A DNA stretch of 64,000 nucleotides from assembly GCF_003334315.1 (NCBI RefSeq), contig NZ_QOWR01000013.1. One strand, written 5' to 3'. Each line of letters begins with the position of its first letter. The stretch's first letter is position 1. Under the pieces are notes generated by a model. The model saw only the letters and a list, made by a program, of their open reading frames with translations, was not told where the DNA came from and searched no databases. This DNA comes from Escherichia coli. Lineage in GTDB: Bacteria > Pseudomonadota > Gammaproteobacteria > Enterobacterales > Enterobacteriaceae. Position numbers and translations under genes: made by a program. This document shows, piece by piece, positions 97 through 59,170 of this stretch.

Positions 97-249
97 CTAC
101 TTCTTCGATTCGTAAGCGAGAACTGCCTTAAACTCCATACCACGTTCTCTGATACTCAACTCACACAACGAGTCGCCTACCATCAGCGTGAATCCCAGTA
201 CTGTAAAACACAGCACTATGATTGCCACAAGGGCATATTTTGTCAGCAT
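97..249 (-). CDS. Hok/Gef-family type I membrane toxin, 50 aa (possibly the hokX-type locus next to cysH)
   Basis: Small minus-strand ORF below the track size cutoff: [50 protein letters not shown]. Hydrophobic N-terminal helix followed by the LCE..R...E.KAVLAYE tail typical of Hok/Gef toxins; GGGAGG Shine-Dalgarno about 7 nt upstream of the ATG. Confidence 0.6.
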
Positions 250-347
250 GTCTTGCCTCCCTGCAAAGAAGAGACTAACATTCGAATTGTTTGGGTTCGA
301 ACGTAAGCCTCAGGTTGATAGAAATATCGCCTGGGGCTTTTGTCCAT
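243..347 (-). CDS. mok-like leader ORF (34 aa) overlapping the start of the hok-like toxin
   Basis: [37 protein letters not shown] ends with TGA overlapping the toxin ATG (ACATGCTGA), the arrangement used for translational coupling in hok/mok loci. Inference from layout only. Confidence 0.35.
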
Positions 348-513
348 CTGGAACCTCGCGAATGCTTAACGCCAGACAGCCTCAAGCACCCGACGCCATT
401 CTATACCTGATAATTCTTCCAGCGGCGTTCACGTTTAAAATCAGGAATACTGCTCGCAAAATAAAAACGCCCCCATCATTTCTGACAGAGGCGTTTAATT
501 TATCCGGCAATAT

Positions 514-4834: not shown

Positions 4835-5149
4835 GCGTCGTTATGTTCCAGTAAGCAAAGCTGTTTCTGCGCCCTGTCAGCGCCCATAAAACAGAAGAGA
4901 AGGTAAGGTTAACGGGGCAAACGGTGTGGATTAAAGACGGGATAGCGATAACTAATAACCAAATCGACTAACCTGTTTTAGCAATAGTCTTTAACAACAA
5001 AATAGATTAACCAACCTAATGAAAAACAAATGAATTTAGCCAATCATTAAGATAAATCAGCGATTTTGCGCAACAAAGTCGTTTTAGATAATGCGAATAA
5101 ACAGCCTTTCCGGTACTCTACGGCGGTTTTATCGTCCTGTAGAGAAATT

Positions 5150-5515
5150 ATGATGTCCACCACGTTATTTAAAGATTTCACCTTCGAAGCCGCTCACCGC
5201 TTACCACACGTCCCGGAAGGGCATAAATGTGGTCGCCTGCACGGGCATTCCTTTATGGTGCGACTGGAAATTACCGGGGAAGTCGATCCGCATACGGGCT
5301 GGATTATCGATTTCGCTGAACTAAAAGCGGCGTTTAAACCAACCTACGAGCGCCTCGATCACCATTATCTCAATGATATTCCAGGTCTGGAAAACCCAAC
5401 CAGCGAGGTTTTAGCAAAATGGATTTGGGATCAGGTTAAACCCGTTGTGCCGCTGTTAAGTGCGGTGATGGTAAAAGAAACCTGCACCGCAGGTTGTATC
5501 TATCGCGGCGAATGA
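5150..5515 (+). CDS. queD: 6-carboxy-5,6,7,8-tetrahydropterin synthase
   Basis: Track ORF 5066..5515; start placed at [21 protein letters not shown]... (121 aa); CxxxHGH motif. Confidence 0.9.
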
Positions 5516-5592
5516 TAAGAGTGTGTCGGCGGTCAATTTCCCTTAAGTAACGCTATGTTAGGGTGTTGTGTTCTGGATATCTGGGGCATGAC

Positions 5593-6864
5593 ATGGAAGA
5601 CGACTGCGACATTATTATTATTGGTGCCGGTATTGCAGGCACCGCTTGCGCGTTACGCTGCGCGCGAGCGGGTTTATCCGTTTTGTTACTGGAACGCGCT
5701 GAAATCCCCGGCAGCAAAAATCTTTCCGGCGGGCGGTTATATACCCATGCACTCGCGGAACTCCTCCCGCAATTTCATCTGACCGCGCCTCTTGAACGAC
5801 GCATCACTCACGAAAGCCTTTCCCTGTTAACGCCGGATGGCGCAACGACGTTTTCCAGCTTACAGCCCGGCGGTGAATCCTGGAGTGTATTACGTGCACG
5901 GTTCGATCCGTGGCTGGTTGCCGAAGCCGAAGAAGAAGGTGTCGAATGCATCCCCGGAGCGACGGTGGATGCACTGTATGAAGAAAACGGCAGGGTGTGT
6001 GGTGTCATTTGTGGTGACGATATTCTCCGTGCCCGTTATGTGGTGCTGGCAGAAGGTGCCAACAGCGTCCTGGCTGAGCGTCACGGGTTAGTGACTCGTC
6101 CTGCTGGTGAAGCGATGGCGTTGGGGATCAAAGAAGTGCTGTCGCTGGAACCATCCGCTATTGAAGAACGTTTTCATCTGGAGAATAACGAAGGCGCAGC
6201 GTTGCTGTTCAGCGGCAGGATCTGTGATGACTTACCCGGCGGCGCATTTCTTTATACTAATCAACAAACGCTCTCGTTAGGGATTGTTTGCCCGCTCTCT
6301 TCCCTTACGCAAAGCCGTGTTCCGGCAAGCGAGCTGCTGACTCGCTTTAAAGCGCATCCGGCAGTGCGCCCGCTTATCAAAAACACGGAATCACTGGAGT
6401 ATGGTGCGCATCTGGTGCCAGAAGGTGGCTTGCACAGTATGCCGGTGCAATACGCCGGTAACGGCTGGCTGCTGGTGGGCGATGCGTTGCGCAGTTGCGT
6501 CAATACCGGAATTTCCGTGCGCGGCATGGATATGGCGCTGACTGGCGCGCAGGCGGCGGCACAAACGCTGATAAGCGCCTGCCAGCACCGCGAGCCGCAA
6601 AATCTGTTTCCGCTTTATCATCACAACGTAGAGCGCAGCCTGCTGTGGGATGTTCTACAGCGTTATCAGCATGTTCCGGCGCTTTTGCAACGCCCGGGAT
6701 GGTACCGTACGTGGCCTGCGTTAATGCAAGATATTTCCCGCGATTTATGGGATCAGGGTGATAAACCTGTTCCACCGCTGCGCCAGTTATTCTGGCATCA
6801 TTTACGTCGTCACGGCCTGTGGCATCTGGCGGGCGATGTTATCAGGAGTCTGCGATGTCTGTAG
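5593..6864 (+). CDS. ygcN: FixC-like FAD-dependent oxidoreductase (ETF-quinone oxidoreductase family)
   Basis: Track ORF 5563..6864; start placed at MEDDCDIIIIGAGIAG (Rossmann FAD motif), giving 423 aa. Confidence 0.85.
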   Translation: MEDDCDIIIIGAGIAGTACALRCARAGLSVLLLERAEIPGSKNLSGGRLYTHALAELLPQFHLTAPLERRITHESLSLLTPDGATTFSSLQPGGESWSVLRARFDPWLVAEAEEEGVECIPGATVDALYEENGRVCGVICGDDILRARYVVLAEGANSVLAERHGLVTRPAGEAMALGIKEVLSLEPSAIEERFHLENNEGAALLFSGRICDDLPGGAFLYTNQQTLSLGIVCPLSSLTQSRVPASELLTRFKAHPAVRPLIKNTESLEYGAHLVPEGGLHSMPVQYAGNGWLLVGDALRSCVNTGISVRGMDMALTGAQAAAQTLISACQHREPQNLFPLYHHNVERSLLWDVLQRYQHVPALLQRPGWYRTWPALMQDISRDLWDQGDKPVPPLRQLFWHHLRRHGLWHLAGDVIRSLRCL

Positions 6865-28171: not shown

Positions 28172-30928
28172 ATGACCAACTACAGCCTGCGCGCACGCAT
28201 GATGATTCTGATCCTGGCACCGACCGTCCTTATTGGTTTATTGCTGAGTATCTTTTTCGTCGTGCATCGCTATAACGACTTGCAGCGTCAACTGGAAGAT
28301 GCCGGTGCCAGCATTATTGAGCCGCTTGCAGTTTCTACTGAATATGGCATGAGCCTGCAAAATCGCGAATCTATCGGTCAGTTAATAAGCGTACTGCATC
28401 GTCGCCATTCCGATATTGTTCGCGCGATTTCGGTTTATGATGAAAATAACCGACTCTTTGTCACCTCCAATTTTCATCTTGATCCCTCATCAATGCAGCT
28501 CGGCAGCAACGTGCCGTTTCCTCGCCAGCTCACTGTCACTCGTGACGGCGATATTATGATCCTCCGCACGCCGATTATTTCTGAGAGTTACTCCCCCGAC
28601 GAATCGCCCAGTAGCGATGCCAAAAATAGTCAAAATATGTTGGGATATATTGCGCTGGAGCTGGATCTTAAATCGGTTCGCTTGCAGCAATATAAAGAGA
28701 TCTTTATTTCCAGCGTGATGATGCTGTTTTGTATCGGTATTGCGCTTATTTTTGGCTGGCGCTTAATGCGCGATGTAACCGGTCCGATTCGCAACATGGT
28801 GAATACCGTCGACCGCATCCGTCGCGGGCAACTCGACAGCCGGGTGGAAGGATTTATGCTCGGCGAGCTGGATATGCTGAAAAACGGTATCAACTCGATG
28901 GCAATGTCGCTGGCTGCTTATCACGAAGAGATGCAGCACAATATCGACCAGGCGACGTCCGATCTGCGTGAAACGCTGGAGCAGATGGAAATTCAGAACG
29001 TTGAGTTAGATCTGGCGAAAAAGCGCGCCCAGGAAGCGGCGCGTATTAAATCCGAGTTTCTGGCAAATATGTCACACGAGCTGCGTACACCACTGAATGG
29101 TGTTATTGGCTTTACCCGCCTGACGCTGAAAACAGAATTAACACCAACGCAGCGCGATCACCTGAATACGATTGAACGTTCGGCAAATAATTTGCTGGCA
29201 ATTATTAATGATGTTCTCGACTTCTCGAAACTGGAAGCAGGTAAGCTGATTCTGGAAAGTATTCCATTCCCACTACGCAGCACGCTGGATGAAGTCGTTA
29301 CTCTGCTGGCACATTCTTCTCACGATAAAGGGTTAGAACTGACGCTCAATATTAAAAGCGACGTGCCTGATAACGTGATCGGCGACCCGCTGCGATTACA
29401 GCAAATCATCACTAACCTGGTGGGGAATGCAATTAAATTCACCGAGAATGGCAACATTGATATTCTGGTAGAAAAACGTGCGCTGAGTAATACCAAAGTG
29501 CAGATTGAAGTGCAGATTCGGGATACCGGCATTGGTATTCCTGAACGCGATCAATCGCGCTTATTCCAGGCCTTCCGACAGGCTGATGCCAGTATTTCCC
29601 GCCGTCATGGTGGCACCGGGCTGGGGCTGGTGATTACACAAAAACTGGTTAATGAAATGGGCGGCGATATTTCGTTCCATAGCCAGCCGAATCGCGGTTC
29701 AACTTTCTGGTTCCACATTAATCTCGATCTGAACCCGAACATTATTATCGAAGGGCCATCCACCCAGTGCCTCGCAGGTAAGCGCCTGGCCTATGTCGAA
29801 CCAAACTCCGCAGCAGCGCAATGCACGCTGGATATTTTAAGTGAAACGCCGCTGGAAGTGGTTTATAGCCCAACGTTCTCCGCGCTGCCTCCCGCGCATT
29901 ACGACATGATGTTGTTAGGCATCGCGGTGACCTTCCGCGAGCCGCTAACAATGCAACATGAGCGATTAGCGAAAGCGGTATCGATGACCGATTTCCTGAT
30001 GCTGGCACTTCCTTGCCATGCACAAGTCAATGCTGAAAAACTCAAGCAAGATGGTATCGGCGCGTGTCTGCTGAAACCATTAACACCTACACGCCTGTTG
30101 CCTGCCCTGACGGAATTTTGTCATCACAAACAAAACACGCTTTTGCCTGTAACCGATGAAAGTAAGCTGGCAATGACAGTCATGGCGGTTGATGACAACC
30201 CCGCTAACCTGAAACTTATCGGCGCATTGCTGGAAGATATGGTGCAACATGTGGAACTTTGCGATAGCGGGCATCAGGCGGTTGAACGGGCGAAACAGAT
30301 GCCGTTCGATTTGATCTTAATGGATATTCAAATGCCGGACATGGATGGCATTCGGGCCTGCGAACTCATCCACCAACTCCCGCATCAGCAACAAACGCCG
30401 GTTATCGCGGTAACGGCGCATGCAATGGCCGGGCAAAAAGAGAAGCTGCTTGGCGCAGGGATGAGCGATTATCTGGCGAAACCGATTGAAGAAGAGCGAT
30501 TGCATAATTTGTTGTTGCGCTACAAGCCTGGCAGCGGTATTTCCTCTCGCGTCGTGACGCCCGAAGTCAACGAAATTGTGGTGAACCCGAATGCGACCCT
30601 CGACTGGCAACTGGCACTACGCCAGGCAGCAGGAAAAACCGATTTAGCGCGCGATATGCTGCAAATGTTACTCGATTTCCTGCCTGAAGTTCGCAACAAA
30701 GTTGAGGAACAGCTGGTTGGAGAAAACCCGGAAGGCCTGGTTGATTTGATTCATAAACTGCATGGCAGTTGCGGCTATAGCGGTGTGCCACGTATGAAGA
30801 ATCTCTGCCAACTGATCGAACAACAGCTACGTAGCGGTACTAAAGAAGAAGATTTGGAACCGGAGCTGCTGGAACTGTTGGACGAGATGGATAATGTCGC
30901 GCGCGAAGCCAGCAAAATTCTCGGGTAA
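28172..30928 (+). CDS. barA: hybrid sensor histidine kinase BarA
   Basis: 918-aa ORF recognised as BarA (two N-terminal TM segments, HisKA/HATPase, receiver and HPt domains). Confidence 0.97.
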
Positions 30929-36117: not shown

Positions 36118-36900
36118 TTAGGAACTTATCTCTCCATCCTGACCCGATGGCGCACTGAACTCAACCCTTTCATTTTCAGGAAGCAGACCGCGCCAGCCAA
36201 ATTGTGATAACGCCTGCATCCAGGTGTCGTCCAGGCCCGCGTGAATAGTCAGCGGCTCGCCAGTAAAAGGATGCGTCAATGACAACTGACTGGCATGTAG
36301 CATTAACCGCTGGAGGCCAAAATGCTCAGCACCGCTGCGATTCTGGCGTAAATCGCCATGTTTGCTATCGCCAATAATCGGATGACGCAAATGGGCAAGA
36401 TGTCGGCGAAGCTGATGTTTGCGTCCGGTTTTCGGCTCCAGTTCCACCAGGCCGTAGCGCGTGGTCGGGTAACGTCCGGTCGCTACCGGCATTTCTACGG
36501 TCGCCAGACCGCGATAATGCGTCACTGCTGGCTGCGGGCCTTTATCTTCGCGGGCAAATTTATCAGCGATTTTGTCCAGTTCTTCCACCAGTGGATAATC
36601 CAGCACCGCTTCTTCCATCAACCAGCCGCGCACAATCGCATGGTAACGTTTCTGGATTTGGTGCTGTTCAAACTGTTGTGCCAGCAGCCGTCCGGCCTCG
36701 CTGGATAATCCCATCAACAACACACCAGAAGTGGGTCGGTCCAGACGATGAGCAGTAAAAACATGCTGGCCTATCTGGTCACGCACGGTTTGCATGACCA
36801 CTACTTTCTCGTCGCGATCCAGCCAGCTGCGGTGAACCAGCCAGCCGGAGGGTTTATTTACCGCAACCAGCCATTCATCCTGATAGAGTATTTCCAGCAT
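36118..36900 (-). CDS. truC: tRNA pseudouridine(65) synthase
   Basis: 260-aa ORF recognised as TruC; catalytic aspartate motif HRLDRPTSG. Confidence 0.93.
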
Positions 36901-37229
36901 TAGCTCGCATCATCCGCAAAAAGAGCATCCAGTTTTTCCAGCTCAGCCAGAATAAGCGCGCGTTGCGGATGGTCCGTCGCCAGCGCCATTTCATAATAGG
37001 GTGCAACGGCAAAAGCGCCCGGTAACGGCTGTTTGTTATCTAACAAATCGTGCATTCGCGGGATCAGCACCCACTGCAACCACTCCAGTGGTTCCATGGT
37101 GTCCATAAAGAACGGTTGGGTACTATTAAATTGATGCGGCTGGGGTTCATCGTTTCGCCAGTGCTGATGTTCACGCAGTAACGCTTCAAGCGCCTGCAAC
37201 TGGAGACGAACGCGGTCATGAGTGGTCAT
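36900..37229 (-). CDS. yqcC: DUF446-family protein
   Basis: 109-aa ORF recognised as YqcC. Confidence 0.88.
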   Translation of the reverse strand: MTTHDRVRLQLQALEALLREHQHWRNDEPQPHQFNSTQPFFMDTMEPLEWLQWVLIPRMHDLLDNKQPLPGAFAVAPYYEMALATDHPQRALILAELEKLDALFADDAS

Positions 37230-37271
37230 AAAGCAACCTCAATAAGAAAAACTGCCGCGAAGGATAGCAGG

Positions 37272-37631
37272 AATAAAAAAAGGGAGCACTGTATTCACAG
37301 CGCTCCCGGTTCGTTTCGCAGCATTCCAGCTACTTTTGTTGCTCCCTGCTCATCCTTGACAACTTTTCCTCTGGCCTTGCGGCCAATCGTTCATCCTGAA
37401 CTATTGCTTCCTGCTCACACCACCCCGATGTGATACTTCATCCTGAAGTGTCCCTGGCCTTCCTGACCCACCGAATCATCCTGACCGGTTCTCATTCTCC
37501 ATCCTGGAGGTGTCCTTTAACGCGTCCTGCGTCATCCTCTTCGCTTCATCCAGAAGCCTTTCCCTGAAACACCATCCTGGTGTGTCCTGCAGAAGTGTCA
37601 TCATCCTGATGTTCACTTCGTTGTCTGACTC
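37272..37631 (-). ncRNA. csrB: CsrB small RNA (CsrA-sequestering)
   Basis: Plus strand carries about 18 copies of CATCCTG, that is CAGGATG / AGGA CsrA-binding motifs on the minus strand; 3-prime end is a GGGAGCGCTGTGAATACAGTGCTCCC hairpin plus U-run; 5-prime end near GAGTCAGACAACGAAG (sequence recognised from memory). Confidence 0.92.
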
Positions 37632-37813
37632 CCTGTCGACGAAGATAGAATCGTCTTTTTCGCGAAGTCTTACAAGGCGCTTACAGACAATGCCTTAAGG
37701 AAAATTTCATATGAAAGTTAAGAATTAACAATCAACATTTTGATTTTAAATGAAAATAACGATTCTTATCTTTTTAAGTATTCGCTTATTTCCTGGCGAT
37801 CTCCTACAGAGTC

Positions 37814-37831
37814 TGTAAGAGATCTCTCACA
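37814..37831. promoter_or_regulatory. 18-bp palindrome upstream of csrB (UvrY-type response-regulator site)
   Basis: TGTAAGAGATCTCTCACA, a perfect inverted repeat about 185-200 nt upstream of the csrB 5-prime end. Confidence 0.7.
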
Positions 37832-37850
37832 ACCAGATGGGATATTTGGA

Positions 37851-38396
37851 TTACAGAAGAGGCTTAAGTTGATTAAGGAATTCCGCAAGATTTGAGGCTA
37901 AATGCGTCCGTTTACGTGTTCCCAGCGTCTCTTTGCACACTTCACCGGAGAGATTACACACCGAGATGACCTCTAACTCTTCTTCCAGCGTCGCGATAAA
38001 TAGTGTGGGCGGCAGTTTTAGCCTTTTCTGAGTCACCAGATGACCAATCAGATTTTCCTGCACCCGACGGAAGTCGTCTTCACTCCAGGTTTGCAGCAAT
38101 GTCAGTTTGATATCGCCAAACTGCGCGTGCATATCCCCGGCAAACTGAGTCGTATAAAAGGTATGAATTGTGGGTTGTATCACAATATCAAAAGCGCGTT
38201 CAACCGCGTTTACATTTTGTTCCCCGGTAAACGGCTGGGGTTGCCAGTATACGGCATCTTCGGTAGTTGAAATAATGCACGGTGAAGGAACACCGTACAG
38301 TTCCTCACTTAACGGCCAGCTTTTATGCTCTTCATGCCACGCATCGCAGTAGCGTGCAGTAAAATCTTTCAGGGCTTGTGCGGTCAAATCGTCCAC
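37851..38396 (-). CDS. syd: SecY-interacting protein Syd
   Basis: 181-aa ORF recognised as Syd. Confidence 0.93.
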
Positions 38397-55811: not shown

Positions 55812-56017
55812 ACTTCCTGAGCCGGAACGAAAAGTTTTATCGGAATGCGTGTTCTGGTGAACTTTTGGCTTACGGTTGTGATGTTGTGTTGTTGTGTTTG
55901 CAATTGGTCTGCGATTCAGACCATGGTAGCAAAGCTACCTTTTTTCACTTCCTGTACATTTACCCTGTCTGTCCATAGTGATTAATGTAGCACCGCCTAA
56001 TTGCGGTGCTTTTTTTT
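55812..56017 (+). ncRNA. gcvB: GcvB small RNA
   Basis: ACTTCCTGAGCCGGAACG... with the GU-rich GTTGTGATGTTGTGTTGTTGTGTTTG region and a GCACCGCCTAATTGCGGTGC hairpin plus T-run at the 3-prime end; divergent from gcvA (sequence recognised from memory). Confidence 0.92.
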
Positions 56018-58986: not shown

Positions 58987-59170
58987 TATCCCTCACCCTA
59001 AACGCATAAATGCCTGATGCGCTACGCTTATCAGGCCTACATAACTCCTGCAATATTTTGGATTTGCATGATTTGTAGGCCGGATAAGGCGTTCACGCCG
59101 CATCCGGCATGAACAACGCGCACTTAGTCAATAATCAGGATGTGAGGTTACCCCTCACCCTGTCATATCC
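58987..59170. repeat. BIME / REP cluster flanked by short GAGGTTA(T/C)CCCTCACCC hairpin repeats
   Basis: Two inverted REP units (GCCTGATGCGCTACGCTTATCAGGCCTAC ... GTAGGCCGGATAAGGCG...GCATCCGGC) bracketed by near-identical 17-21-nt hairpin motifs at about 58987-59007 and 59147-59170. Confidence 0.6.

Follow-up and report, generated by a model that had tools for sequence, protein, structure and literature searches.

The csrB small RNA gene and its UvrY-type near-palindrome between yqcC and syd in Escherichia coli

The window, a stretch of 64,000 nucleotides of E. coli DNA, carries between yqcC and syd the gene for a non-coding RNA, csrB, together with a core promoter, a putative IHF site, an 18-bp near-palindrome upstream and an intrinsic terminator at its end (Table 1). 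We scanned the whole window with Rfam and found RF00018 (CsrB/RsmB) at 37272-37631 on the minus strand with 380.4 bits (E = 1.2e-110), relative to a curated gathering score of 71 bits, and the match covers model positions 1-356 of 356. The sequence-only reading, which had placed csrB on this strand between these two genes, had named this covariance-model search as its own refutation test, and the test was passed decisively. Corroborating this result, the gene is identical at 369/369 nt to the ncRNA csrB of MG1655 (b4408) and has the same neighbors, and the whole stretch between yqcC and syd (37230-37850) matches K-12 MG1655 except at a single base, 37842, which is outside the RNA and every regulatory element, 11 nt past the UvrY site towards syd. 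Since MG1655 is annotated with the 369-nt ncRNA csrB (b4408) at the matching coordinates of this near-identical region, we set the gene to 37272-37640, so that its +1 sits 9 nt upstream of the start of the Rfam model. The interval studied, 37272-37831, runs from the 3' end of the Rfam match to the outer end of the inverted repeat.

Table 1. Features of the csrB locus and other genes in the 64,000-nt window (+1, transcription start of csrB).
Feature	Position	Strand	Details	Basis
csrB ncRNA gene	37272-37640	-	369 nt; +1 at 37640	RF00018 match; identity to b4408
Intrinsic terminator	37272-37307	-	stem-loop 37307-37282, then TTTTTTTATT	terminator scan
Unstructured segment upstream of terminator	37307-37323	-	RNA positions 318-334	identity to RNA of PMC5027483
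GGA-20 and GGA-21	37325-37345	-	GGA-20 37343-37345; GGA-21 37325-37327	GGA positions 296 and 314
Core promoter (putative)	37647-37675	-	-35 TTGTAA 37670-37675; -10 about GATTCT 37647-37652	read from sequence
Two direct TGTAAG hexamers (UvrY half-site sequence)	37669-37685	-	37680-37685 and 37669-37674	sequence reading
IHF consensus (putative site)	37733-37745	-	AATCAAAATGTTG (WATCAANNNNTTR); -105 to -93	pattern match
Extra half-site	37798-37808	-	TGTAGGAGATC; 5 bp promoter-proximal of repeat	PMC4682653; conservation
UvrY-P site (predicted), 18-bp near-palindrome	37814-37831	.	TGTGAGAGATCTCTTACA in RNA sense	exact match to footprinted sequence
yqcC	36900-37229	-	downstream flank	RefSeq annotation; Enterobacterales synteny
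syd	37851-38396	-	upstream flank; stop codon 20 nt from UvrY site	NF003439; RefSeq annotation
barA	28172-30928	+	hybrid sensor kinase, 918 aa	NF008318 equivalog; RefSeq annotation
sok antitoxin (RF01794)	234-391	-		Rfam, 113 bits (gathering score 59)
GcvB sRNA	55812-56017	+		Rfam, 199 bits
ES036/CssrF sRNA	59033-59075	-		Rfam, 46.5 bits, just over threshold 37.6
tRNA	60503-60576	+		Rfam scan

There is no ORF of at least 80 aa in 37272-37831, and the PGAP-annotated RefSeq E. coli genomes have no feature at the csrB position. Hence, csrB goes unseen by an ORF track, as the sequence-only reading had remarked. With a 1-kb query, we found the locus in 5426/5426 complete E. coli genomes, in each case flanked by syd and yqcC; in 23 of the 5426, the locus is not covered to 80% at any one place. 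One of the copies in these genomes is plasmid-borne. Separately, the clinical isolate E. coli MARGA_3 (L123, NZ_CM170101.1, 3286-4600) has an IS3-family transposase inserted in csrB at about +94.

The upstream neighbor is syd, whose product matches NCBIfam NF003439 with 286.7 bits. Farther away, the barA product matches the NCBIfam BarA equivalog NF008318 with 1623.9 bits (cut-off 890) over residues 1-917, and RefSeq names barA in a genome that is colinear with the window (7 mismatches in 21 kb). The coordinates that had been assigned to BarA from the letters alone were exact. The distance to csrB, which had been put at about 7 kb, is 6.3 kb when measured from the end of barA to the csrB 3' end, and 9.5 kb when measured between the start of barA and the csrB transcription start. 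barA is outside the csrB transcription unit, and it acts in trans. By tblastn, csrA is absent from the window, and uvrY also lies outside it; therefore, these partners act in trans as well. In E. albertii (L004, 2516-5269) and Enterobacter sp. Ag1 (L009, 2591-5335), too, barA and the csrB repeat are no more than about 5 kb apart, so the neighborhood is older than E. coli. A functional meaning of the barA-csrB linkage was considered, and nothing beyond a shared chromosomal neighborhood was suggested. Elsewhere in the window are the RNA genes at the foot of Table 1, among which the sok match implies that a hok/sok-type toxin-antitoxin locus of the chromosome lies at the window's left edge.

The csrB sense strand has 22 GGA motifs in 369 nt, the number published for E. 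coli CsrB, whose consensus is CAGGA(U/A/C)G (PMC5027483). Within the 360-nt Rfam match, we found 21 GGA, 14 AGGA, 9 CAGGA(A/C/T)G and 6 exact CAGGATG in the sense direction, and 2 GGA and 0 AGGA on the complementary strand. This density is not random: mononucleotide shuffles of csrB have 12.3 ± 2.8 GGA and 3.7 ± 1.8 AGGA (14 AGGA observed), and the 14 AGGA per 369 nt at csrB are the extreme of the window, where the median count is 1 and the 99.5th percentile is 6. The earlier description of about 18 CAGGATG-type motifs was loose in its count, with 22 GGA and only 6 exact CAGGATG. The figure of 18 is the historical count of imperfect repeats, and the current count is 22 GGA.

In the minimum free energy (MFE) fold of csrB (-120.7 kcal/mol, z = -3.85 relative to shuffles), 18/22 GGA are mostly unpaired and 9/22 are wholly inside hairpin loops, which is the count in predicted loops that had been proposed as a check. 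The number of mostly unpaired GGA coincides with the 18 of the earlier description. At 100% identity to the published RNA, csrB would be expected to bind and sequester multiple CsrA dimers (PMC5027483, PMC7652899).

We then aligned the RNA from 13 enterobacterial genera and found compensatory change on both sides in 29/54 consensus pairs, with the loop GGA conserved, in a MAFFT alignment of repeat-rich RNAs in which some columns are uncertain. For example, columns 113-115 and 124-126 are compensated in 6/13 sequences. The consensus of this alignment consists of short hairpins with GGA in their loops. Hence, the stems covary and the loop motifs are kept.

The intrinsic terminator that had been claimed at the end of the RNA was recovered by the terminator scan as a stem of 11 pairs (7 of them G-C) with a loop of 4, followed by T7, and its stem carries compensatory changes across the 13 genera (alignment columns 373-399). 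Just upstream, the published RNase E cleavage positions of CsrB, A327 and A331 (PMC5027483), map by identity to 37314 and 37310, respectively, and both residues are A in the window. CsrA at GGA sites 20 and 21 shields CsrB from RNase E (PMC5027483), and both motifs are present here (Table 1).

The near-palindrome upstream of csrB reads TGTAAGAGATCTCTCACA on the plus strand and TGTGAGAGATCTCTTACA on the minus strand, is self-complementary at 16/18 positions (8/9 pairs), and spans -191 to -174 with its centre at -182.5 relative to the csrB +1. Zere et al. 2015 described the csrB 18-mer as 'nearly perfect' and centred at -183/-182, found UvrY crosslinked to it in vivo in a barA-dependent manner, and obtained a DNase I footprint with UvrY-P in vitro, which on linear DNA showed this upstream site only (PMC4682653). 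The site in the window matches the UvrY/SirA (GacA-type) class pattern, TGTRAG-N6-CTYACA at a long distance upstream of the promoter of a Csr/Rsm sRNA. It departs from the ideal consensus palindrome once, at base 4, where G stands in place of A, as in the published sequence. It had been called a perfect palindrome that matches the UvrY site for csrB; the second half of this statement holds letter for letter, since the sequence and centre are those of the footprinted site, and the first half does not, since perfect dyad symmetry fails at one of the nine pairs. Symmetry is, however, no requirement for membership in this class of sites. Its identity to the published site suggests that 37814-37831 would bind UvrY-P and serve in activation (PMC4682653).

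Between this site and the gene, a sigma-70 consensus scan of 37150-37950 had no match, which is expected because the csrB promoter is activator-dependent; therefore, we read the promoter hexamers by eye from the known +1. Read in this way, the core promoter is weak: the probable -35 hexamer is TTGTAA at -35 to -30, and a poor -10 would lie around GATTCT at -12 to -7. In the upstream alignment of 13 genera, the TTG of the -35 is invariant, and the ATCA and TT of the putative IHF site are nearly invariant. In the published work, the putative IHF site lies between two UvrY crosslinks, and IHF is needed for csrB activation (PMC4682653). The published half-site TGTAGGAGA, recorded previously in E. 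coli and Salmonella (PMC4682653), was found 5 bp downstream of the repeat at 37800-37808, and in its longer form, TGTRRGAKATC, positions T29, G30, T31, G34, A37, T38 and C41 are invariant in the 13 enterobacterial genera. Neither this conserved third half-site nor the ATCA...TT of the IHF site nor the -35 TTG belonged to the search pattern.

We also noticed two direct TGTAAG hexamers at -45 to -40 and -34 to -29, which are 11 bp apart; the second overlaps the -35. Both are inside the published downstream UvrY ChIP-exo crosslink (-56 to +25), and in the 13-genus upstream alignment their conservation is limited to Escherichia, Citrobacter and, in part, Pluralibacter. According to the published account, the repeat is not kept at the downstream crosslink; the TGTAAG hexamers are not mentioned there (PMC4682653). 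The UvrY-P contacts at csrB may extend beyond the footprinted near-palindrome, with the third half-site and the two hexamers contributing, which we consider a rather unlikely proposal; in that case, the promoter-proximal ChIP-exo crosslink could be accounted for by weak secondary binding at the hexamers in a complex looped by IHF. Another inverted repeat, GACGA-N8-TCGTC at 37638-37655, spans -15 to +3 of csrB; it was flagged by the scanner as terminator-like on the plus strand and has no obvious conservation outside Escherichia.

The pairing of the 18-bp repeat with a GGA-dense RNA is found well beyond E. coli. We scanned one genome per species for 100,044 species with TGTRAGAGATCTCTYACA and found at least 120 loci, and those listed are in Enterobacterales, Vibrio, Photobacterium, Enterovibrio, Shewanella, Alcanivorax, Vreelandella/Halomonas and Kangiellaceae. 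Among the matches listed, 98/125 repeat instances have at least 15 GGA per 350 nt on one side, a level reached by 0.014% of the background windows in these loci. In 20 diverse loci that we sampled with Rfam, a full CsrB match lies 164-267 nt from the repeat in 15; these comprise 12/12 of the Enterobacterales loci and 3/3 of the Vibrionaceae loci, all with full-length CsrB. The repeat and the RNA are 180-184 nt apart in Escherichia, Citrobacter, Pluralibacter, Hafnia, Yersinia and Serratia, given as seven enterobacterial genera in which the window and E. albertii both come under Escherichia. Against about 183 nt at csrB, the spacing ranges over 164-225 nt in the remaining Enterobacterales and over 247-267 nt in Vibrionaceae. 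The gene order syd-repeat-csrB-yqcC-truC is kept through Enterobacterales.

Outside Enterobacterales and Vibrionaceae, the link between genera is drawn from GGA density only, because no Rfam match in the loci sampled there is above threshold. Shewanella gelidimarina (L080) has tandem CsrB-like matches on the minus strand at 4896-5201 and 5532-5813 with the repeat between them, and their scores, 46.9 and 67.5 bits, are just under the gathering score of 71. The repeat loci of Alcanivorax, Vreelandella and Kangiellaceae have no Rfam match even at E <= 0.1, and in three of them (L005, L048 and L036, respectively) the 18-bp repeat is present with only 3-10 GGA nearby. These loci could hold candidate short Rsm-type sRNAs outside the current models. 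We set aside, as a likely chance occurrence, one match to the repeat in a contig of Porphyromonadaceae (L044). Among the matches listed, the asymmetric repeats (L003-L122) read TGTGAG...CTTACA in the RNA sense 60 times and in reverse 15 times, with kinship ignored; the orientation of the single mismatched pair is biased.

These results bear on whether the region is a csrB gene with its own activator site. Short ORFs of 22-71 aa occur on both strands, and one could read the region as coding for small proteins, for example from minus-strand ORFs of 46 aa or 26 aa within the RNA. However, ORFs of these sizes are the chance expectation in 600 nt, K-12 annotates an ncRNA at this place, and the RNA covariance match reaches 380 bits. 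Since conservation follows the compensated stems and the invariant loop GGA rather than codons, we dropped the small-ORF reading, which has at best a very slight probability. Slighter still is the probability that the RNA is another member of the Csr/Rsm clan, CsrC or an RsmB-type paralogue. The architecture of GGA loops and the upstream UvrY/GacA site are common to members of this clan, and of overlapping matches within a clan, Rfam retains just the best one; nevertheless, the identity at all 369 nt to the annotated b4408 and the position between yqcC and syd, which is that of csrB across Enterobacterales, refute such a paralogue, and the published csrC repeat is different (TGTGAGACATTGCCGATA; PMC4682653).

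The repeat itself could have nothing to do with csrB and be a chance palindrome, the terminator of syd or a target of some other regulator, in keeping with its place only 20 nt past the syd stop codon. Against chance, 0.06 matches to the 18-mer with up to 3 mismatches are expected per window, and among the matches listed it adjoins a GGA-dense RNA in the 98/125 instances above, in many genera. The reading as a syd terminator is ruled out, since the two 9-nt arms meet without a loop between them and are not followed by a T-tract. Moreover, it is on this 18-mer that UvrY-P left its DNase footprint (PMC4682653). We regard an unrelated repeat as highly improbable, on a par with the small-protein reading.

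Hence, the region is almost certainly the E. coli csrB locus, encoding a UvrY/IHF-activated, CsrA-titrating RNA whose turnover is initiated by RNase E. We found nothing that contradicts this explanation; three minor points can be held against it, namely the lack of a sigma-70 match, the 9/22 GGA that are strictly in loops, and the location of uvrY and csrA outside the window. Our analysis itself establishes what the gene and its sequence elements are, where they lie, that they are not random, and that they are conserved and covary. The binding of UvrY-P and IHF, the sequestration of CsrA and the decay pathway are taken from the literature by way of sequence identity, and the mechanism as described there (PMC4682653, PMC7652899, PMC5027483) would run as follows. 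Short-chain carboxylates would be sensed by BarA, leading to phosphorylation of UvrY, and UvrY-P would occupy the 18-bp near-palindrome. IHF would bend the DNA between the UvrY site and the core promoter, so that UvrY-P activates transcription from the +1. The transcript would stop at the intrinsic terminator and encode no protein, and it would display about 20 GGA, for the most part in the loops of short hairpins or in single-stranded RNA. These motifs would bind many CsrA dimers and thereby titrate CsrA from its lower-affinity mRNA targets. Turnover would begin with a cut by RNase E just upstream of the terminator, which CsrA at GGA 20 and 21 would block and CsrD with EIIA-Glc would permit by lifting that block.

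Compared with csrB of E. coli K-12 (b4408), the locus has the same 369 nt, promoter region, flanking genes, 22 GGA and terminator, without any difference in the gene or its regulatory elements beside the one substitution at 37842. The activating sequence for UvrY/SirA/GacA (TGTAAGN6CTTACA) of Zere et al. 2015 is represented by the same 18 nt, and the csrB site of that study likewise has the same centre, the same half-site 5 bp downstream and an IHF site between repeat and promoter (PMC4682653). CsrC, RsmY/RsmZ of Pseudomonas and the CsrB-like sRNAs of Vibrio and Shewanella resemble csrB as GacA/UvrY-activated RNAs with multiple GGA loops that sequester CsrA/RsmA, and among the matches listed, Vibrio, Photobacterium and Shewanella have the same 18-mer upstream of GGA-dense RNAs. 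In contrast to csrB, all of these are other genes at other loci, which have fewer GGA motifs (CsrC and RsmY/RsmZ) or another spacing, as in Vibrionaceae with 247-267 nt from repeat to RNA.

Thus, the csrB locus is a textbook one that is already known, with no departure from K-12 in the gene or its elements, and it raises no new question, because the gene, promoter, activator site and decay have been characterized experimentally on this exact sequence. Two small points go beyond the cited papers: 13 enterobacterial genera share the third half-site and the IHF core, and a pair of TGTAAG hexamers lies in the -35 region. The evidence supports the sequence-only reading in every substantive claim, with two details wrong or loose, the word 'perfect' and the count of 18. 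Since csrB is missed both by ORF tracks and by the PGAP annotation of E. coli, flagging it was correct and is useful as annotation of a hub of the Csr global system, through which the cell controls carbon metabolism, biofilm, motility and virulence.
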